Shown here: one piece after another, positions 9,673 to 34,872 of the stretch
How positions within the stretch are numbered: the first letter of the stretch is position 1
Layout: every line of letters begins with the position of its first letter
Assembly: GCA_016207775.1 (NCBI GenBank)
Contig: JACQOU010000389.1
Coordinates: 1 to 34,890, forward strand
From: Deltaproteobacteria bacterium
GTDB lineage: Bacteria > Bdellovibrionota > FAC87 > UBA2466
Length of the DNA: 34,890 bases
Direction: 5' to 3'
The notes under the pieces: generated by a model
The model's input: the letters and a program-made list of their open reading frames with translations, nothing else
Database searches by the model: none
Told to the model about the DNA's origin: nothing
Made by a program: the position numbers and the translations under genes

Positions 9673-10173
9673 CTAGTGATGGGTCCGTCCGTGGTGCCTC
9701 CCTCTTCTTTCTTCATCTTCTTCTTCCGGCCAACGAAGCTCTCGTTTCCGGTAGCTTCCCTCTTCTCCCTCTTCCTCGTCCTCGATGCGACTTCTTGAAC
9801 GACTGTGGCGAGGCAGCTCCTCCTCGCTCCACCGAGAGCGTCCACCCTGACGCCCGATCTCCTCGTAGAATTCAGGTCCTCGTTCGCGAGCGACGGTTTC
9901 CCCGCCTTTGCGCCCGATGTCCTGATAGAACTCCCTTCCTCTTTCCCGCGCGACGGTTTCCCCGCCTTTGCGTCCGATCTTCTCATAGAATTCACGGCCT
10001 CTTTCCCGCGCGACGGTTTCACCCCCTTTGCGGCCAATTTCCTCGTAGAATTCGGGTCCTCGTTCGCGCGCGACAGCCTCCCCCCCTTTGCGACCGGCTT
10101 CTTCTACAGTCATCCGGCCGCGGCCGCGCCGTAAACGGGGTTCATCGTATGCTGCAGATCCTCGTTTAGCCAT
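9673..10173 (-). CDS. KGG-repeat stress-induced protein (YciG/GsiB type).
   Basis: Four and a half 20-aa repeats of GRKGGE(A/T)VARERG(P/R)EFYxxI. I moved the start to the ATG at 10173, which follows AGGAGG (rc of 10181..10186). Charged low-complexity C-terminal tail. Confidence 0.85.
   Translation of the reverse strand: MAKRGSAAYDEPRLRRGRGRMTVEEAGRKGGEAVARERGPEFYEEIGRKGGETVARERGREFYEKIGRKGGETVARERGREFYQDIGRKGGETVARERGPEFYEEIGRQGGRSRWSEEELPRHSRSRSRIEDEEEGEEGSYRKRELRWPEEEDEERRGRHHGRTHH
9829..10095 (-). repeat. In-frame 60-bp tandem repeat (about 4.4 copies) encoding the KGG repeats.
   Basis: Units 9901..9960 and 9961..10020 are nearly identical. Units 9841..9900 and 10021..10080 are slightly diverged. 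Period is exactly 60 bp. Confidence 0.9.
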
Positions 10174-10185
10174 TCGTAATCCTCC

Positions 10186-10223
10186 TTGTGCCATTGGTGC
10201 TACCTTGTGCCATTAGTGCTACC
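10186..10223. repeat. 19-bp tandem duplication in the KGG leader region.
   Basis: ttgtgccattggtgctacc (10186..10204) is followed directly by ttgtgccattagtgctacc (10205..10223), with one mismatch. It abuts the KGG gene RBS. Confidence 0.85.
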
Positions 10224-24037: not shown

Positions 24038-24496
24038 GTGGGTTCTAAATCAAAAATCTCTCGACCTATTGAGCTGCTGCTCGTTGAAGATAATCCGGCT
24101 GACGTTAGACTGGTTATGGAACTATTGAAGAGTTGGAAGACTGCGCACAAGGTGAGCGTTATACAGGACGGTGAGAAGGCGACCCAGTATTTTGCTGACT
24201 GTGGAAACAACAGGGTTAAACCCTTGCCGGATCTTGTTTTACTCGACTACAACCTGCCTAAAAGTAGTGGTCTTGAGGTGCTAAAAGAAATTAAGTCGTA
24301 TAATACGCTTTCGCATATTCCAGTGCTCATCCTTACGACCTCCCAGTCCAAAACGGATTTAACTCAGCTGTACGAAAACCATGCTAATTGTGTACTCAGT
24401 AAGCCAGTCGATCTTGTGAGCTATGAAGAAATGCTCAAAGCCATTGAAACTTTTTGGCTGCAAACCGTTCATTTGCCTAGCATTACACGCGCTTGA
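24038..24496 (+). CDS. Single-domain CheY-like response-regulator receiver.
   Basis: LLVEDNPADVRL, LVLLDYNLP (phospho-Asp), ILTTS, SKP. GTG start with GAGAGGGA upstream. Confidence 0.85.
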   Translation: MGSKSKISRPIELLLVEDNPADVRLVMELLKSWKTAHKVSVIQDGEKATQYFADCGNNRVKPLPDLVLLDYNLPKSSGLEVLKEIKSYNTLSHIPVLILTTSQSKTDLTQLYENHANCVLSKPVDLVSYEEMLKAIETFWLQTVHLPSITRA

Positions 24497-24517: not shown

Positions 24518-26194
24518 CTAGTGGGGGTGCTCCAGCAGAGCTTTGAGGGCCTCAGGATTAACCGGTTTTTCCAGTTGGCCTGAAATGCCGGGTACCCAAG
24601 AAGACTGGAATGTTCCGGAAAGCAAGAACACTTGCGGGGTTGGTTTCAGTGAAGCGGCCAACAAACTGAAGTCCTTGACACTCGTATCGGTCGGTTCCGT
24701 CTGTACGTCAGTGAAGATGACGTCAAAGCGTGTCCCAGAATCAAACAAAGCAATGGCCTCCCTCCGAGAACCTACACTTTGAACATCATCATATCCGATT
24801 AAGCGCAAAGCCATGGTCAGCATACGTTGTTGCATCACGTGATCATCGATCACGAGAATTTTTTTCGTGGCCACTGGCTTACCGGAATCCGTTCTAACGG
24901 GAGGTAAAGGACGCACCTGTACGACGTCCTCCACGTAACCGGGCAACAAAAGGGTAAAGGTACTTCCCTCATTTTGAACTGTGTTCACCTCTATCCATCC
25001 GCCTTGCCGCTTCACAAAATCCAAAACTGAACAAGTGCCAACACCCGTTCCGCCCGATTCAGGCCTTCCGGTATATCCCGTAAAGAGCTTTTGCAACGTC
25101 TGAGGATTCATTCCCTGACCTTTATCGGACACTGAAATCGCCAAGAAAGCGCCAGCCTCTAACGTCTTGCCGGGTACAACAATTCGTTGCGTATTGGTTG
25201 TGATTTCGTGGGGACTGCCAGTCACCACTCTGACGTCCACAGATATTTCCACTTCCGAGGGCGGACCCCAAGCTTTAGCGTTATCAACCAAGTTGCTGAG
25301 AGCGTCCAACAATCCAGTAACGTTCACGTCCAGAAAAACTGGGCGCTGACTCTTAACGACCACAGGATTTCGACTTAAAAAAGAAATCTCACTGACTAAT
25401 TCGGGAATTTTCACTCTCCTGACAGCTTGGCCTGGAGCTTCTGCTTCTCCCAATATGATTAAACAGGTTCGTCGAGCTAAGCTGAGGTAGGACAACACCA
25501 CTTCTAAGTCTTCGATTATCCGTTTATGAGTGTCCGGGGTCAGACTTGTATTTTTTAACCGGTCCTGTTCCAGTCGGCGAACGGTTGGTTCACCCGATAA
25601 AAGGCGGGTGATGCTTTCTGCGTATTCATCCGCAAGTTCCTCAAGTTTGGGCAGTACTCCATTTAAGTAATTTCGCAACGTATGGATCTGATCCAGCAGG
25701 CGTTCCTTTTGGTCAGGGTCAGCGAGAGCGAGCGCATGGTGTCGTGCCTTCATGAGTGCCACGCGCACTGGACCTATGGCACTGGGATCGGTGGGATCAT
25801 AGATAGAGTTCTTCTTGGGGGGAGCCAGAAAGTCCCGCTTAAAGTAAGCCAAAGGAGCGACCAAGTAGTAGAGGTTCCGTCCGGCCACAACGTTTTTTTC
25901 GTTCTGGTAGAGGTAGTCCGAAAGTGTCAAATAGACCTGTAACAAGGGTGCAAGTAAATTTCCAACGTAGCTCTGAGCGAGTTCGATGTCCCCTTGTGCT
26001 GAGATGGTTCCTGGGCAAACATTCAAATCATCAGGTTCGGGAGGGCCGCCGTATGCCGATGGGGTATTGCCATACGCACGTCCGAAAGAGGCACCGAGAA
26101 CCCATGTGATAGAAAAGATAATGAAAATAGACCTTAAGGGCTTCAGGCTGAGGTGCTTGGCAAGCGGTACTGAATGTTGGGTATTAGCCGTCAT
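24518..26194 (-). CDS. Atypical hybrid kinase-like protein: N-terminal hydrophobic anchor, helical region, HATPase domain, C-terminal receiver.
   Basis: N-box-like LSNLVDNAKAWG, then SDKGQGM and GGTGVGT. Receiver domain KKILVIDDH...DVIFTDVQ...EKP. I see no canonical H-box (HExxxP) by eye. N-terminus is LRSIFIIFSITWVLGASFG. Confidence 0.7.
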   Translation of the reverse strand: MTANTQHSVPLAKHLSLKPLRSIFIIFSITWVLGASFGRAYGNTPSAYGGPPEPDDLNVCPGTISAQGDIELAQSYVGNLLAPLLQVYLTLSDYLYQNEKNVVAGRNLYYLVAPLAYFKRDFLAPPKKNSIYDPTDPSAIGPVRVALMKARHHALALADPDQKERLLDQIHTLRNYLNGVLPKLEELADEYAESITRLLSGEPTVRRLEQDRLKNTSLTPDTHKRIIEDLEVVLSYLSLARRTCLIILGEAEAPGQAVRRVKIPELVSEISFLSRNPVVVKSQRPVFLDVNVTGLLDALSNLVDNAKAWGPPSEVEISVDVRVVTGSPHEITTNTQRIVVPGKTLEAGAFLAISVSDKGQGMNPQTLQKLFTGYTGRPESGGTGVGTCSVLDFVKRQGGWIEVNTVQNEGSTFTLLLPGYVEDVVQVRPLPPVRTDSGKPVATKKILVIDDHVMQQRMLTMALRLIGYDDVQSVGSRREAIALFDSGTRFDVIFTDVQTEPTDTSVKDFSLLAASLKPTPQVFLLSGTFQSSWVPGISGQLEKPVNPEALKALLEHPH

Positions 26195-26497: not shown

Positions 26498-27151
26498 TTA
26501 CTCAGATAATTGACTGGTTACCAGATCCACGGCCATTTGGACCGTTTTTGTTCTTACTTGTTTCATTGACCAGCCGTAATCGCTGGTAAAAAAGTAATGG
26601 ATGTTTCCGGAAATCATCGACTGGACAGCGCGGCTAATCTCTTTGATTTTTGTTTGTGTGAGTTGGCCATTATGGACGAGAACATCCAGGGTAGCGGCAA
26701 TTCGATCCTCCCCTCCCTTTTGGATCACGTTTTGTAGCTGTCTCATATCCTCATCGTGGGTGCAGAGATAGTAGAATAAGGACATTACCGAAAAATGCTT
26801 GGGATACTGGGATAACCATTCAAAGGGGCCATCGATGACGATTTTGAGTCGATCCTTCCAGTGGTTGGCCTTCTTGACGTTACGGATGATAATTTGCTGG
26901 CCAGTTGCCACCGCATAGCGTACCGCCCCTTTAATCAACTCCTTCCGACTTGAGAAGTAGTAGTTCACATGGGCTCTTTCCATGTTGACGATCTTTCCAA
27001 TGGATTCAAAGGTGGTTGCCTCAAGGCCTTGAGTTGCCAGGCAATCAATGACGGCCTCCAGTATCTTAATTTTAATGAGCTCGCTTTTTGTTCGCTTGGT
27101 ATCGAATATCTGAAAGTAAAGGGAGGAGGGAAGTTTTTCGCGGTTGCTCAT
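26498..27151 (-). CDS. TetR/AcrR family transcriptional regulator.
   Basis: N-terminal HTH ATTFESIGKIVNMERAHVNYYFSSRKELI. It starts 39 nt after the stop of the upstream gene, so the two are likely co-transcribed. Confidence 0.85.
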   Translation of the reverse strand: MSNREKLPSSLYFQIFDTKRTKSELIKIKILEAVIDCLATQGLEATTFESIGKIVNMERAHVNYYFSSRKELIKGAVRYAVATGQQIIIRNVKKANHWKDRLKIVIDGPFEWLSQYPKHFSVMSLFYYLCTHDEDMRQLQNVIQKGGEDRIAATLDVLVHNGQLTQTKIKEISRAVQSMISGNIHYFFTSDYGWSMKQVRTKTVQMAVDLVTSQLSE

Positions 27152-27190
27152 GATGATTTTATACCAATAAAAAAGTCAAATTCCCATCGT

Positions 27191-28336
27191 TCATGGCATT
27201 TTTCCCGAAGACAGCAGCTCGTTCGCGCAAGTGGAAGCGCGGAGATTTTGAGCCATTTCTCTATCGTAGACCAGCCATTCGGCCTGTTTCCCAAATTGCT
27301 GATGACGGTTGGCAATCATGTGAAGCACGTTTTGCCTAAGCATTTCCAACCGCACTGGCCGAAAATTTAGCTTAACGTCGCCCGTATGAACGTTTTGTAT
27401 GGTCTTGTAGTGAGTGGTGCCGAACCGTTCATAGAGACGAGCAAGAATGGGGCTTTCCGCTTCATAGCTTGCTGTCCAACCCGTTTCCGCCAGCATCCCT
27501 AAATTTTCCTGGGAAGCCGTTTCGATTCCAAGCTTCTGTGCCTCACTGTCCGGAATACGCTCTCCGCTATAGACTAAGAATTTGTGCTGAATTCCTATCC
27601 ACCATAAGTGACCAAATATTTTTTCAGCAAAGTCGGGATCCAGACAATAATGCTTGATTTCGAGTTTACCGCCCTTGACCCACAGGATTTTTCGCTCTCT
27701 TGGAGGAAATACAATCCGAAAGTGCCCAAACCCGGATTGTTCCAACAAAGGGACATTAAACCAACCGCTCGTCACATCGTCCGTCGGCAAGGGACCTCCC
27801 AATCCTTTGTTCAAAAAGTGGCGTTCTTCCGGCAGCAAACCGTCGGGTCCAACCATCGAGACTCGCTGAAGGGCAATCGGAACTTCGTCCTCAAGGCCGA
27901 CCGCCTTGTTTTTTTGCACAATAACGATAAAGGAGGACACTCCGTCATCCGGCGGTTCCTCCCGTTCAACCCCCTTCACAATCGCGCTAACGTTTTTGCC
28001 GTAAATTTTCGGATATTTCGCAATCTCGTTGAGGTACCACTTTTGAGCGCGCTTAAGATATCGGCTAATGAATTTTGAATCGTTCGGATAGTAGTTTCTT
28101 AACAAAAGGGCATGAAGCGGATCCTGTGCACCAAAAAAGCGGGCATAGTAATCCGCAAGGATCACTCGTACTGCGTACGTCTCGAAGCTTCTTCCATCTT
28201 CTCCAATCAAACGAAGGTCGTAGGGGATGAAGGTGTACCCCAACAACGTTCCACTCAATAGAAGAGACAAAACTATCCAGGCTCTGGCGAGCATAGGGCA
28301 TGCACCATAACTGAAATCGAGTTCTGGCTCAATCAT
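27191..28336 (-). CDS. Hypothetical protein with an N-terminal membrane anchor or signal segment.
   Basis: 381-aa ORF with the hydrophobic segment MLARAWIVLSLLLSGTLLG near the N-terminus. No catalytic or family motif recognised. The exact start is uncertain (28336 or 28294). Confidence 0.6.
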   Translation of the reverse strand: MIEPELDFSYGACPMLARAWIVLSLLLSGTLLGYTFIPYDLRLIGEDGRSFETYAVRVILADYYARFFGAQDPLHALLLRNYYPNDSKFISRYLKRAQKWYLNEIAKYPKIYGKNVSAIVKGVEREEPPDDGVSSFIVIVQKNKAVGLEDEVPIALQRVSMVGPDGLLPEERHFLNKGLGGPLPTDDVTSGWFNVPLLEQSGFGHFRIVFPPRERKILWVKGGKLEIKHYCLDPDFAEKIFGHLWWIGIQHKFLVYSGERIPDSEAQKLGIETASQENLGMLAETGWTASYEAESPILARLYERFGTTHYKTIQNVHTGDVKLNFRPVRLEMLRQNVLHMIANRHQQFGKQAEWLVYDREMAQNLRASTCANELLSSGKMP

Positions 28337-28416
28337 TAACTAAAAAAACAGAATAAAAACAATATATTAACTACTGGTTGATTGCATCCGCTGCTATGTG
28401 CTAAAAGTCGACGGTT

Positions 28417-31400
28417 ATGGTGGTGGGATGTCCCTTTAGATTAACGTGGTTAGTTTTGTTGTGGACCGTGGCAAACCCTTGCCTGGCTGTATCGGTCTTA
28501 GATGCCCCTTGCCCCACAGCCATCATAGAAAAAGCGGTAGGCCGCATGCCTGTTCGTTTAAGTGCGGACGATCTGAATCAATTCGTTCGATTAGCGGTAC
28601 TGCCGGTATTACAGGAAACCCCACGCAACCCGTTTTCGATTATCCAGAACAAGGCACAATCCTCTGTGACTTTAAGCAGTCCTAACGGCGACTATACCTT
28701 TCGTCTGACAGCCGACCCCAGCCTGGCCTACCCAAGGCATGGACTCCCCGTAGTGATCTATCGGGGTGACAGACTGCAAGCCGAATTCACCGTTCTGGCA
28801 ACCCATGACGGCGACTACGCCAGCATGGACAGAGTCGCAGGAATCGTGCGTTCTGCCTTAAGAGCGGAGCCCATCACCCAGCGAAAATTAAACCTCGAGC
28901 AGATCCCGGTTCTCAGCGCGCTTTTAGACATGGAAGGAAGAACGGGTCCGGGTGGCTGCTGGAGAGGTGTCGTTCACCCTGTGGCAAGCGGAAAAACTTT
29001 TATTTCTGCAAAATACGTCCAGGAAATTCGCAAAAAACTCGGCGGTCAGCCAGGATGGAAGAATAAGCCAAAAGTACTAGCCGTTCTTCAAAACAACGCG
29101 GGCTTGGACCATATCGTACAGACTTACTCCGAAGAACTGGGTCTTACCAAAATCGCCAAACTATACGACGAAAGCTCCCAGAACCCCACTGATCTAGCTT
29201 CCGAAATGATAGCGATCACACGGACTACGTATTTTAAAAGACGGTCAGAAATTCATGCCTTGCTCCAAGCCGATACCGACCAACCGTGGGTCATTGTTTT
29301 CGACGAAGCCCATCATCTGGGTAAAAACGGCGGCCAGTTTGAAAAGATTCTAAAGGGCTTGAATAAGATTATCGATCACCGGCATCGTGTGCTCACACTA
29401 TCTGCCACCTTTTGGCATTCAGACAAAAAACTGATCACGAAATACCTCCATGGCAATGTGGTTGGCGGCTTCTTGAACCCCAACGAACAGCAACAACTCG
29501 AACAAGGTGAAGATTTGGTTTCCCTATGCCGGCTTCAATTCTATCGAATGATCGCAAGGGGATATAGTCCCCCGTTTTTTGGCATTCACATGGTTAGAAG
29601 CGTGGATGGCTGGCCCGCCTCCGCTATCCTTGGCAAGGAATTCCTTCGTTCGCGGGCCGTAGCCGAGTCGCTTGCAAGAGATATCAAAAGCCGGATCGTA
29701 GGCGATAGACGGGTACACGTTTACGATCGAGGAGTGCTGTTTGCCCCCTCCATCGATCACGCCAACCTCTACGCTGAGTTGCTCTCAAAGTCGGGACTTG
29801 AAACACGTGCCTTACATTCGGAAACTACCACGAAAAAAGCTACGCTGAATTGGTTTTCAGATAAGGGGGATTTCGACTCGGAAGCAGACAGGAAAATACA
29901 TAAATACATTGTTGTCGTCGATATGCTCAATGAGGCAGTCGATATCCCGAAAATTAATATGGCTGTATTACTGAGCCCCTTCAGTATGTATATCAGCGGC
30001 TTTAAAGAACTGATCCAGGCCCTGGGAAGATCAAGCCGTCCGGCCGAAGGAAAAATTGACGTCCGCATCTACGATTACACCCTTCACACACGCTGGTTGC
30101 GGGATGGGCTTTCTCAGATCATGGTCGAAAGACCCCCTTCTAATCGGCTGCAGCACCCCGTTTCTCGTACCTTAGGTCTAGTGGTTATCCAAGACGATGG
30201 TAAGGAAGTGTTACGAGATCCCGTTCAATTTAATGCACAGTACGATGAACGGTTCCCTGAGGACCTTGAGTTTACGGATCGTCATCCTTGCTTTGACGTG
30301 TCTCAATTTGAAAAATGGATGGTCCCGGCGTTAGAGCACCTTGCTTTCCATCTCGGTGTGAAGAACCTAAGGGCGGGTGGTGCGATAGTCGATCTCCTTA
30401 CCCGGCTTACCAATTACCTGCCCGACCTTCCTGAGAAAGACGAGCTACTGGAATGGTTAAAGGAAGCCGATACCCTTAAGAAATGGGATGGAGCTAGAAT
30501 ACTGGAAAGCCCCCCCGACCTCTACAGCGCTCGAAGAGTTTATGAAGTGCTTTACGAAATCGCCAGAGTATTAGAGTACGCACCGCAACCGACGCAAGTT
30601 GATCTTTCGCGTCTTCTAGACCCAGCCGAATTGGATAGATTGTGGAGTGCACTACTGTCCTATCGGATAAGTGCATTAGCTTCACGCAAAGACATCCAGA
30701 TTTTTTTGGAACCGGAAACAGGGGGGCTCGCCCTTTTCATGGCGGAAGCCAAAAGGCAGGGGTTCGTGGGAGGACCCAAGCATGATCCAAAGAATCCGGC
30801 AAAAGACTTCTGCATTTATCTGGCAAACCAAGCGTACACACACGTCCACTCGCCAGCGTTGCGTGCCAAGCTGGATCAGTTGGTAAGAGACTTGGCGGAC
30901 GATGAGCTTTGGGGTTGGGTGCAAAACGATGGAACTCGCGACTTAAAAGAGATGAAAACCGATCCTTCCTTCGCCCGTCCGGCACAAAAAGGCAGAAACG
31001 GATGGGAGCGTATCTACGCGGCCCTTTCAGCCCTCGCAGATCTTTTGCGGCAGACCAAAGCAAAAGAACTTCCAAAAGAACTCCTCAGCCAACAGGACAT
31101 TGGAAAACTGTTGGATCTTCTCATCAGCAACCGATCGGGTATTTACTTCACCGCGCCACAGTTTGAGACCTGCAGAAAAGAAACATTGGATATCGTTCGA
31201 CGAAGAATGGAAAATTTTGGCATCAATAATTTTCAACTTCCTTTCTCTACCCGGACTATTGCAGTAGAAGCTGCCAAGCTCCTGCCGGAAGGGTGTCCCA
31301 ATAAGAAAGCTCTCGTTCGGTATCTGGCTTCCGATGATTACGGTTGGACGAAAAATGCTGGTCTAGGAATTATTCAGGGATCACGGTTACCCACCGAGAA

Positions 31401-31950
31401 GTTTTTGAACTCCCTCTATCTCATCGCCAAAGAACTTTCAGAAACCGACTTCGGACGAGGGGTAATCAATCCCAACCAAATTTTTGCGGCTCAAGAAATG
31501 AGCGACTTCTTAAATGTGCTGGTATTAGGCTTTACCGTTCCACTCTTAAAAGAAAAGGACATGGATGCCATTCAAAATGTTGTGAATCCGTTCGGACTAG
31601 AAGTAGCTCCTCGATTTGGTGCAACTCCGTATGTGCTGCAGGGCGGCCCCCGCAAACTCGCATTAGCTTGGGCCAATCGAATTCCAGCGACCAACGGGCA
31701 AGTTGAATTCCTGCGCAATAGGCTTCTTTTCTTCTTGGAACACCGCTGGGGATGGACCGACTCCGATGCCGATGTCATTAACAGATTCCCTAATATCAAG
31801 GTCTGTGAACGATTAGATAGAGCCTTGATGGCTATCGCCACCATTCAAAAGCTTGCTCTCAGGGAACAGGCCACGTTTGATATCCAACGCTTACGCACCC
31901 GAAGGCATTTAGAGGTATTAGCACTTAGTTTGGGTGATGCTTCACAATAG
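28417..31950 (+). CDS. Large SF2 (DEAH-type) helicase with unknown N-terminal region and a repeat-containing C-terminal extension.
   Basis: Motif I HPVASGKT (28975..28998), motif II FDEAHH (29299..29316), LSATF (motif III), VVVDMLNEAVDIP, and motif VI QALGRSSR. About 180 aa N-terminal and 540 aa C-terminal are unassigned. The N-terminus MVVGCPFRLTWLVLLWTVANPCLA is hydrophobic. An alternative start is M44 at 28546. Confidence 0.8.
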   Translation: MVVGCPFRLTWLVLLWTVANPCLAVSVLDAPCPTAIIEKAVGRMPVRLSADDLNQFVRLAVLPVLQETPRNPFSIIQNKAQSSVTLSSPNGDYTFRLTADPSLAYPRHGLPVVIYRGDRLQAEFTVLATHDGDYASMDRVAGIVRSALRAEPITQRKLNLEQIPVLSALLDMEGRTGPGGCWRGVVHPVASGKTFISAKYVQEIRKKLGGQPGWKNKPKVLAVLQNNAGLDHIVQTYSEELGLTKIAKLYDESSQNPTDLASEMIAITRTTYFKRRSEIHALLQADTDQPWVIVFDEAHHLGKNGGQFEKILKGLNKIIDHRHRVLTLSATFWHSDKKLITKYLHGNVVGGFLNPNEQQQLEQGEDLVSLCRLQFYRMIARGYSPPFFGIHMVRSVDGWPASAILGKEFLRSRAVAESLARDIKSRIVGDRRVHVYDRGVLFAPSIDHANLYAELLSKSGLETRALHSETTTKKATLNWFSDKGDFDSEADRKIHKYIVVVDMLNEAVDIPKINMAVLLSPFSMYISGFKELIQALGRSSRPAEGKIDVRIYDYTLHTRWLRDGLSQIMVERPPSNRLQHPVSRTLGLVVIQDDGKEVLRDPVQFNAQYDERFPEDLEFTDRHPCFDVSQFEKWMVPALEHLAFHLGVKNLRAGGAIVDLLTRLTNYLPDLPEKDELLEWLKEADTLKKWDGARILESPPDLYSARRVYEVLYEIARVLEYAPQPTQVDLSRLLDPAELDRLWSALLSYRISALASRKDIQIFLEPETGGLALFMAEAKRQGFVGGPKHDPKNPAKDFCIYLANQAYTHVHSPALRAKLDQLVRDLADDELWGWVQNDGTRDLKEMKTDPSFARPAQKGRNGWERIYAALSALADLLRQTKAKELPKELLSQQDIGKLLDLLISNRSGIYFTAPQFETCRKETLDIVRRRMENFGINNFQLPFSTRTIAVEAAKLLPEGCPNKKALVRYLASDDYGWTKNAGLGIIQGSRLPTEKFLNSLYLIAKELSETDFGRGVINPNQIFAAQEMSDFLNVLVLGFTVPLLKEKDMDAIQNVVNPFGLEVAPRFGATPYVLQGGPRKLALAWANRIPATNGQVEFLRNRLLFFLEHRWGWTDSDADVINRFPNIKVCERLDRALMAIATIQKLALREQATFDIQRLRTRRHLEVLALSLGDASQ
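30322..31947 (+). repeat. Four divergent protein-level repeats (about 110-140 aa each) in the helicase C-terminal extension.
   Basis: Aligned cores are LLEWLKEADTLKKWDGARIL...RRVYEVLYEIARVL; LVRDLADDELWGWVQNDGTRDL...GWERIYAALSALADLL; LVRYLASDDYGWTKNAGLGI...EKFLNSLYLIAKEL; and LLFFLEHRWGWTDSDADVIN...ERLDRALMAIATIQKL. Alignment was done by eye. Confidence 0.55.
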
Positions 31951-33733: not shown

Positions 33734-33949
33734 CTATTTCCGGACTTCGTAACCGGCATCCTCGATGGCCGCTTCCGCATTTGCCCTGGTTGTCTCGTCA
33801 TTGTTGGTAACGATAAGCGTGACGGATTTCTCTTTAAGGCTGACTGTGACACTTTCAACGCCAGCAACCTTGCCCAGCGCTTTTTGAATAGCGCCCACGC
33901 AATGACTGCAAGTCATGCCTTTGATTGGAATGACGATTGTCTCTGCCAT
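33734..33949 (-). CDS. Heavy-metal-associated (HMA) domain metallochaperone, CopZ-like.
   Basis: MAETIVIPIKGMTCSHCVGAIQKAL carries the GMTCxxC motif. 71 aa. AGGAGG RBS before the ATG at 33949. The track ORF is extended upstream. Confidence 0.85.
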   Translation of the reverse strand: MAETIVIPIKGMTCSHCVGAIQKALGKVAGVESVTVSLKEKSVTLIVTNNDETTRANAEAAIEDAGYEVRK

Positions 33950-34872
33950 CGGATACCTCCTAGGGTAAAGGGTAAGTGCCTTTTGGCCCACACAAGCCGA
34001 AATTCGCGTCGATACATCCAAAAATAACAAACGACTAGGATAGCAATCCCGCCAACCACCGTTGGAATAATCGTAACAGGACCCATGAAGGCATTCATTC
34101 CTCCGACCATCGCCGCAGGCATGGCACCCATCATTCCACCCATCAACGCCATCCCGCAAACCATAATCGGGTTATCGTGTTCCGGTTCCCCGGCATGTTT
34201 ATCGAGAAGGCCGGCAAGCCATCCGCCGATCAGTCCTCCCAGCATCGCCCCACTCATACCGTAAGCCATTCCTCCGAGCATGATGCCGTTGGCAAGGTCT
34301 CGCTTCATGACAATTATCATCAGAATGGTAAGTAAGATTTCGATGATGACGGAAAGGGCCAGCATAATCGCAAGCTTATTTTTCATCTTCATCGGTTGAA
34401 CGGGTAGCGGCTCACCTTCATCATTTACTCTTATTCCACAGCAACTGATCTTGTTCACTCGATAAACAGACGCATTATTGCGGGAGCAAAAAACGAAAAG
34501 CCCCAGATAAAGCGCACCCAAGACCCAAGAAATATGAATCGCCGGAAAGAAAAAGTAAAAACCCGCAAGCACCGTTCCCGAAAGCCCGAATGCGGTTGCG
34601 CCAATGAATGAGCCCATTGCGGAAAGAACCCCCATATCCATCTGAGAGCAGGCATCTTCTTCCATCACCGCTCCCAAATATCCACCCGCTTTTGATCCGA
34701 TAAGGGCAAAAAGCGCTCCCCAGATAAAAACCTGGGCCATGACTTGATCAAACTGACTTTCTTGTTTCAAAACATAAGCACAAACAATGCTCGATGTGAC
34801 CAAAAGAATGTTCAGGGAGTGAAAAATGTAAAAGACGATATGGTCCGTATTTTCGTCCGAGCGTGTCTGCAT
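33913..34872 (-). CDS. Methionine- and glycine-rich polytopic membrane protein, unknown family.
   Basis: About eight hydrophobic segments. Met clusters (GMAYGMSGAMLGG, CGMALMGGMMGAMPAAMVGGMNAFMG) and a CC pair (ISCCG). GGAGGGGG RBS. It overlaps the copZ-like start by 37 nt. Confidence 0.65.
   Translation of the reverse strand: MQTRSDENTDHIVFYIFHSLNILLVTSSIVCAYVLKQESQFDQVMAQVFIWGALFALIGSKAGGYLGAVMEEDACSQMDMGVLSAMGSFIGATAFGLSGTVLAGFYFFFPAIHISWVLGALYLGLFVFCSRNNASVYRVNKISCCGIRVNDEGEPLPVQPMKMKNKLAIMLALSVIIEILLTILMIIVMKRDLANGIMLGGMAYGMSGAMLGGLIGGWLAGLLDKHAGEPEHDNPIMVCGMALMGGMMGAMPAAMVGGMNAFMGPVTIIPTVVGGIAILVVCYFWMYRREFRLVWAKRHLPFTLGGIRWQRQSSFQSKA

Follow-up and report, generated by a model that had tools for sequence, protein, structure and literature searches.

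A TetR-linked gene module pairing an orphan protein family with an SF2 helicase-like ATPase that bears a predicted export signal

Introduction

What might a large superfamily 2 (SF2) helicase, a protein of an orphan family and a TetR-family regulator be doing side by side in an otherwise ordinary stretch of bacterial chromosome? The question is raised by positions 26,498 to 31,950 of contig JACQOU010000389.1 (assembly GCA_016207775.1, a Deltaproteobacteria bacterium placed in the Bdellovibrionota by GTDB), a stretch of 34,890 nucleotides (nt) that we refer to as the window. The three open reading frames (ORFs), of 217, 381 and 1177 amino acids (aa), lie where an earlier note on this DNA had drawn them, and that note ventured that they might make up an undescribed defence system against phages or plasmids. 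Here we describe the linkage of these genes in other lineages, the export-signal features of two of their products, and the intact ATPase motifs and repeat architecture of the helicase. The explanation that we favour, to which we assign a probability of only about one in three (0.35), is that the locus encodes a nucleic-acid translocase and its partner, both exported and under TetR control, which would act outside the producing cell, most plausibly in a target cell.

Results

The three genes are linked across lineages

Genomic context was viewed, and checked by tblastn, in 12 lineages, ten of which (the window, L001, L026-29, L030, L031-33, L034, L035, L037, L038/39 and L040) form the main clade of the 381-aa family. 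A helicase homologue adjoins the 381-family gene in all ten, and in nine the two are directly divergent; in L040 the TetR gene is placed between them. Identity to the window proteins within this clade is 27–42% for the helicase, 43–56% for TetR and, in nine lineages, 27–32% for the partner, with 20–32% spanning all partner identities that BLAST detects; the L040 partner was found by profile alone. A TetR orthologue is adjacent in eight of the ten, and in 10 of the 12 lineages overall (33–56% identical), in an orientation that varies: co-directional, convergent, or between both other genes. Of the two main-clade lineages without it, L035 is on a contig that stops shortly after the gene, and L037, whose contig is short, has COX2 downstream instead. 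The neighbouring genes outside the module differ at every locus.

The distant lineages L041 and L042/43 retain the TetR orthologue (39% and 33% identical, respectively) with no helicase in view; the L041 contig begins 120 nt upstream of its TetR gene, and a helicase could lie beyond. L002 and L005 have the helicase without the TetR and 381-family genes. On the basis of this survey, TetR and the predicted exported partner are the most persistent core of the module, and the helicase is its regular third member. The suspicion of the earlier note that the three genes form a linked, undescribed unit is thereby borne out, and the check on co-occurrence and synteny that it proposed finds the trio kept together between differing flanks. 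Full-length helicases of this kind are rare: a word-indexed search of 5.8 billion proteins returned two full-length relatives of the window helicase, and at least three full-length members exist among 185,579 species-representative genomes, to judge from a scan with peptide patterns that had to match near-exactly.

Two variations in gene content were seen beside the module. In one of them (L042:5395-8044; L043:2971-5620), the gene of a distant 381-family member, which matches the profile at E = 2e-4, is convergent with the TetR gene that is 33% identical. The pair directly adjoins a phage-type integrase, amid small unplaced ORFs and an XRE-type helix-turn-helix (HTH) gene, and no helicase lies within ~4–6 kb on either side; here the two-gene core may exist in a mobile form. 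DUF4423 (PF14394) HTH proteins are encoded near the module at L035:1117-2154 and L039:2026-2817, and in L039 the gene sits between the 381-family and TetR genes.

Predicted export signals and conserved cysteines

Export was judged by inspection and with a crude signal-peptide detector, not with SignalP. By inspection, the N-termini of all nine full-length helicases have a short basic n-region, a hydrophobic core of 11–16 aa and a small-x-small site, and a Cys follows 2–10 residues past the predicted cleavage site in every one. The L002 helicase has this signal peptide only if translation begins at a GTG that lies 18 nt before the called ATG. The earlier note had described a hydrophobic, signal-like start of the window helicase, and we add the consequence for export that the note did not draw. 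In the partner, an n-, h- and c-region layout ends right before the conserved YYVIPYELR in 6/6 close homologues, and signal peptides of classical form are predicted in most of the 42 family members aligned. The crude detector is positive for 33 of these 42, its misses being mostly truncated or over-extended gene calls. Applied to other proteins of the window, it is positive for the S46 peptidase and an outer-membrane barrel and negative for RecD2, SodB, PntA and the sigma-54 activator. What had been described as an N-terminal transmembrane segment of the 381-aa protein is better read as a cleavable signal peptide, and we read cores of 11–16 aa as short for a membrane anchor.

The start codons of both genes bear on these signals. 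The public gene call for the 381-aa ORF starts at Met15, giving 367 aa and omitting 28295..28336, and Met15 (28294) is most likely the true start, because the signal peptides of the homologues begin there. For the helicase the public call starts at Met44, giving 1134 aa and omitting 28417..28545. We consider the ATG at 28417 the better start, because the hydrophobic stretch and Cys upstream of Met44 recur in 9/9 homologues. As the automated call at Met44 removes the signal peptide, database surveys would miss the export signal of this helicase.

Both proteins carry conserved cysteines. Besides the N-terminal Cys, C371 is present in 8/9 helicases. At least 90% of the 42 partners have a C-terminal Cys (C370 in ORF numbering), which lies 12–22 residues from the C-terminus in the tabulated loci and is often the sole Cys of the mature protein; in L034, helicase and partner alike have exactly one Cys per mature protein. 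In an oxidising compartment, such cysteines could be functional thiols or could join in an intermolecular disulfide.

Two other routes of export were considered for the helicase and rejected. A lipoprotein reading of the N-terminal Cys fails for want of a lipobox, Pro or another non-small residue being at position -1, and export by twin-arginine translocation fails because the twin-arginine motif is absent. At L002:9238-9771 (- strand), the divergent neighbour of the helicase gene encodes a 177-aa protein that begins MNGRYFFVIAIIVSA, with C directly after it; this looks like a lipoprotein signal with a lipobox, which would make it another exported neighbour.

The helicase has an intact core and novel accessory domains

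The 1177-aa protein has the two RecA-like domains, Walker A motif, DExH motif and arginine-finger motif VI of SF2, to which it belongs. In Pfam it matches ResIII with 43 bits (cut-off 22.5) and Helicase_C with 25.3 bits (cut-off 23.5), and DEAD is also above its curated cut-off. The motifs HPVASGKT, FDEAHH, SAT and QALGRSSR were located as the earlier note had claimed, and GxGK[T/S], the D-E of motif II and the Q..GR..R of motif VI are retained in 9/9 full-length helicases despite only 27–42% identity. The ATPase is probably active, to judge from this conservation. A fold search with the helicase model returned generic SF2 RecA1 matches alone, for example RadD and RIG-I; the AlphaFold2 model, built from a three-sequence alignment, has a predicted local distance difference test (pLDDT) score of 48, too poor to use, with low to moderate confidence in the N-domain.

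The N-domain (~155 aa) contains conserved YP..GLP and RSALRAD stretches (alignment A1), and for it there is neither a Pfam match at E<=1 nor a PDB match. Beyond the core, the four C-terminal repeats that had been noticed and could not be placed are real. A profile seeded from the Bacteriovoracaceae homologue (L005), which has four near-identical units of ~125 aa each, converges upon iteration on 38 units across nine proteins, with four units in eight homologues and six in the ninth. The unit is ~130 aa long and all-alpha, and a 31-unit repeat profile gave zero matches in PDB and Pfam. For an HTH nature of the repeats there is a summed match to the LexA winged helix (LexA_DNA_bind) of 27.6 bits (cut-off 23.7), seen in L005 only and with no single stretch significant; we retain it as a weak lead. 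The homologue with six repeat copies instead of four is the 1468-aa helicase of L035 (L035:3384-7790, - strand), and the repeat array can therefore expand.

The partner defines an orphan family

The earlier statement that the 381-aa protein has no recognised motif is upheld by searches of Pfam, NCBIfam, PADLOC, PHROG and PDB sequences, in which it has no match. A profile made from this protein and its first homologue was used to recover further members, and an exhaustive HMMER search of 1.84 billion proteins places 46 cluster representatives in the family, 24 of them at E<=1e-30. In the alignments on which conservation was judged (A3 and A4), the near-invariant residues are R158, E226, K228 and C370 in ORF numbering. 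A reading of the partner as a GNAT-like acyltransferase, suggested by the shapes of its motifs, found no support: 0/42 members have a Pfam match at E<=1, and no PDB sequence matches. The AlphaFold2 model of the partner (five-sequence alignment, pLDDT 38) is too poor to use, and a fold search with it gave nothing significant, HAT1 being listed at E 0.6–1.6. On these poor models, fold searches of the kind that the earlier note proposed gave little information on either protein.

The regulator and its presumed control region

The regulator belongs to the TetR family, with a TetR_N (PF00440) match of 30.2 bits against a cut-off of 24. It is not assigned to the choline-responsive BetI regulators, as it scores 69.4 bits against the NCBIfam BetI model (TIGR03384), for which the cut-off is 201.3, and it falls under every NCBIfam equivalog cut-off. 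The 381-aa gene lies upstream of the TetR gene with 39 nt between them, and the spacer between the 381-aa ORF and the helicase gene (28337..28416) is 80 bp long with 67.5% A+T, so that both the gap and the AT-rich spacer described earlier are as reported. If the 381-aa gene starts at Met15, the divergent spacer is 122 bp. We presume that TetR acts at this control region (28295..28416). A promoter and terminator scan gave counts under the shuffled expectation.

As in TetR/TetA, AcrR and BetI, the regulator has a TetR_N HTH and a BetI-like C-terminal domain and is tightly linked to neighbouring genes, here across the 12 lineages. Where those systems have a pump or a metabolic enzyme as the linked product, the proteins encoded beside this regulator are predicted to be exported.

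Table 1. Features of the module in window coordinates.
Feature	Position	Strand	Remarks
TetR-family regulator, 217 aa	26498..27151	-	N-terminal HTH and BetI-like C-terminal domain, below the BetI cut-off
381-aa ORF, predicted exported protein of an orphan family	27191..28336	-	Likely start Met15 at 28294 (367 aa)
Predicted Sec signal peptide of the 381-aa protein, MLARAWIVLSLLLSGTLLG, cleavage before YTFIPYDL	28238..28294	-	
Divergent control region, presumed TetR target	28295..28416	.	Spacer 28337..28416 plus 42 nt if Met15 is the start
SF2 (ResIII/DEAH-type) helicase-like ATPase, 1177 aa	28417..31950	+	
Predicted Sec signal peptide of the helicase, MVVGCPFRLTWLVLLWTVANPCLA, then conserved Cys (C32)	28417..28488	+	By inspection
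Helicase N-terminal domain, fold unplaced, ~aa 25-180	28489..28956	+	Conserved in alignment A1
RecA1/ResIII domain, aa 185-332	28969..29412	+	Pfam ResIII
Motif I (GKT, HPVASGKT), aa 187-194	28975..28998	+	
Motif II (DEAH, FDEAHH), aa 295-300	29299..29316	+	
Motif III (SAT), aa 329-331	29401..29409	+	
RecA2/Helicase_C domain, aa 436-541	29722..30039	+	Pfam Helicase_C
Motif VI (QALGRSSR), aa 534-541	30016..30039	+	
All-alpha repeat unit 1, aa 626-750	30292..30666	+	Iterated repeat HMM, E=1.3e-29
All-alpha repeat unit 2, aa 758-906	30688..31134	+	Iterated repeat HMM, E=7.2e-28
All-alpha repeat unit 3, aa 911-1039	31147..31533	+	Iterated repeat HMM, E=6.7e-30
All-alpha repeat unit 4, aa 1047-1175	31555..31941	+	Iterated repeat HMM, E=2.2e-26

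Other observations in the window

When ~15 billion proteins are clustered at 90% identity, PntB, PntA, SodB and RecD2 of the window each remain alone; since four housekeeping proteins are singletons, the contig comes from a lineage without sequenced close relatives. Immediately upstream of the TetR gene, 24518..26194 (- strand) encodes a 558-aa protein with HATPase_c and receiver domains, no HisKA match and a hydrophobic N-terminus that is positive in the crude detector. A stand-alone response regulator (24038..24496, + strand) is encoded divergently from this protein, and no link to the module is seen at the other loci. At 33734..34159 (- strand) an ORF has, by eye, the heavy-metal-associated motif GMTCSHC that is characteristic of CopZ-like metal chaperones. 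An overlapping ORF of 319 aa (33913..34872, - strand) has the make-up of a multi-pass membrane protein, is rich in Gly and Met and has no Pfam match; the gene boundaries here are uncertain. Finally, 9673..10194 (- strand) encodes a 173-aa protein that combines an LEA_5-like region with KGG stress-induced repeats, features typical of proteins for general stress or desiccation.

Discussion

A pair of exported proteins acting on another cell?

Beyond gene linkage, motif conservation and signal-peptide features, each functional step of the explanation that we favour is one we infer from sequence. TetR would repress the divergent promoter region until a small-molecule cue is present, upon which helicase and partner would be exported via the Sec pathway. 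The helicase would act on DNA or RNA inside another cell, be it prey or competitor, and the partner (mature length ~350 aa) could serve as co-effector, chaperone or inhibitor; the conserved unpaired cysteines of the helicase N-terminus and the partner C-terminus might link the two proteins. Since the periplasm holds no ATP, a strictly conserved ATPase behind a seemingly cleavable signal peptide suggests that the enzyme works where ATP is available, namely in the cytoplasm of another cell.

Bdellovibrio is known to export prey-degrading enzymes whose genes have adjacent self-protection, for example the endopeptidase Bd3459 with the immunity protein Bd3460. The module resembles this arrangement in that a predicted Sec-signal enzyme of cytoplasmic type stands beside a small partner, also predicted to be exported, in Bdellovibrionota-type genomes. 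It differs in that the enzyme is an ATP-dependent helicase rather than a hydrolase and in that no homology was found, and the targeting of prey would have to be assumed. The labelled genomes with the helicase family are a Bdellovibrionaceae metagenome-assembled genome (MAG; L002/L003), a Bacteriovoracaceae MAG (L005) and an unclassified "Pseudomonadota bacterium" (L001/L004), and that two of these three belong to the Bdellovibrionota counts in favour of the proposal. In Bdellovibrio bacteriovorus, predicted-exported endonucleases and the helicase Bd1370 are induced early in predation, and the nucleases are predicted to degrade prey DNA (PMC2797640). Bd1370 is cited for this predation context only.

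A number of points weigh against our proposal. Export of both proteins is predicted by inspection and a crude detector, and the latter is positive in just 6/9 helicases, although its three misses may be due to the start codons chosen. Both Bdellovibrionota MAGs carry the helicase alone, and the sole labelled genome with the full trio is the "Pseudomonadota bacterium". No secreted, periplasmic or exported helicase turned up in a literature search, where "helicase effector" had a few matches on unrelated topics; since none is documented in the literature searched, the prior for an exported helicase is low. We also identified no means by which the proteins could pass from the periplasm to a target cell. 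Because both AlphaFold models are poor, an activity of the partner or the repeats has no structural support. Lastly, inverted-repeat scans and a one-mismatch k-mer census of 12 divergent intergenic regions for a TetR operator found only A/T-rich low-complexity words to recur.

The proposal can be carried further, to a version that we regard as rather unlikely. This would be the first Sec-exported helicase system, in which a predatory or antagonistic bacterium secretes an SF2 translocase with a possibly disulfide-linked partner, the repeats bind nucleic acid, the ATP of the victim drives unwinding or stripping of its nucleoid or RNA, and TetR senses a cue from the prey or the environment.

Alternative explanations

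Of the other explanations, the one that survives best, although we think it unlikely, is an envelope-resident machine. Here the two proteins would be held by uncleaved anchors or would be periplasmic, and would serve, under TetR control, in DNA uptake, DNA export, the handling of extracellular DNA, or a role that does not involve nucleic acid. The same export or anchor signals would serve such a machine, single conserved cysteines would suit an oxidising compartment, and the helicase-only loci adjoin an outer-membrane-like protein (L005) and a probable lipoprotein (L002). However, the ATPase motifs are strictly conserved although the periplasm lacks ATP, the short cores with their small-x-small sites look cleavable rather than anchoring, and competence, pilus or secretion genes are adjacent at none of the loci viewed.

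It is more doubtful still that the N-termini are not functional export signals and that the module serves a TetR-regulated nucleic-acid metabolism in the cytoplasm, for example in repair or RNA remodelling, with a helicase specialised for the task and an accessory protein. The automated start of the window helicase at Met44, past the hydrophobic stretch, would agree with this, as would the fact that helicases are known as cytoplasmic enzymes, with no exception in the literature searched, and that the closest structural matches of the core include the repair helicase RadD. Against it, the hydrophobic stretch and Cys are in frame in all nine helicases despite their low identity, and in most of the 42 partner-family members the conserved sequence begins exactly at the predicted cleavage site. 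Such conservation is unexpected of an untranslated leader.

The defence function suggested in the earlier note fares worst. On this account the proteins would be a cytoplasmic anti-phage or anti-plasmid system, with a helicase that senses or translocates foreign DNA, a 381-aa effector or membrane partner, and TetR tuning expression. The rare and patchy distribution of the module would suit defence, as would the phage-type integrase that adjoins the TetR and 381-family genes of one distant lineage (L042/L043). The core is of ResIII type, and its best matches, all weak, are to PbeA, type IV restriction and DpdE in PADLOC, a Dnd restriction enzyme in NCBIfam, and PDB 7clg, deposited as a "putative helicase", which we take to be the type IV restriction enzyme SauUSI. 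These matches are partial, however. Those in PADLOC reach at most 35 bits and cover aa 411-556 or ~50 aa around motif II, the best being PbeA (35 bits, aa 442-556), while the NCBIfam and PDB sequence matches are confined to the motif V-VI region, that of 7clg to profile positions 507-570 only.

Like Hachiman, DISARM, Druantia and Zorya, the locus has a large stand-alone SF2 helicase beside proteins of unassigned function. Unlike them, it has no match to HamB, DrmA/D, DruE or ZorD, lacks their partner genes and shows predicted export signals. The PADLOC check proposed earlier matched no known system. For Hachiman, no HamA (DUF1837) or HamB model was matched at E<=0.1, and the neighbouring genes have no PADLOC match; for DISARM, no Drm model was matched, and DUF1998, PLD and methylase domains are not at the locus; for Druantia, no Dru model (DruE, DruA-D) was matched; and for Zorya, no Zor model was matched and MotAB-like genes are not in the window. 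A full-length match to PbeABCD, mREase_IV or Dpd was not reached, and their nuclease domain is absent. With type III Res, RadD, PbeA and 7clg the helicase shares two RecA-like domains and motifs I, II, III and VI, but it lacks a nuclease or target-recognition domain and instead has an N-domain of its own and four novel all-alpha repeats. We know of no N-terminal Sec-type signal peptide in those families.

The surroundings also speak against defence. The earlier observation that no nuclease, methylase, protease or other known partner stands at the locus, and no mobile-element gene flanks it, holds; the window as a whole contains no mobile-element gene and is ordinary chromosome: the G+C fraction of the trio is 0.484 against 0.480 for the window, whose other genes encode an S46 peptidase, an esterase, oxidoreductases, RecD2, SodB, two-component and sigma-54 regulators, PntAB and a DUF2383 ferritin-like protein, and an Rfam scan of the window found no RNA family. 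Among PLSDB plasmids, INPHARED phages and the viral contigs of IMG/VR, the module had no match. Finally, the conserved, predicted Sec-type signal peptides of helicase and partner, which look cleavable, would place both outside the cytoplasm, where the known defence helicases work. With partial PADLOC matches, no partner genes, no occurrence in plasmids, phages or viruses, and predicted export signals, we disfavour defence as the least probable of the explanations considered; the probability remaining belongs to explanations that were not.

Implications

Since no described system matches it, the module is new in kind. Whatever its mechanism, the analysis adds a repeat domain and two protein families to those known, and the linkage of their genes makes them tractable. 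To our knowledge, and in the literature searched, no helicase is known to act anywhere but inside the cell that makes it, where ATP and nucleic acid are found together. If the proteins of this module are indeed exported, they would represent a new class of secreted nucleic-acid-targeting effector, and would provide a new means to investigate the dismantling of other cells by predatory or antagonistic bacteria.

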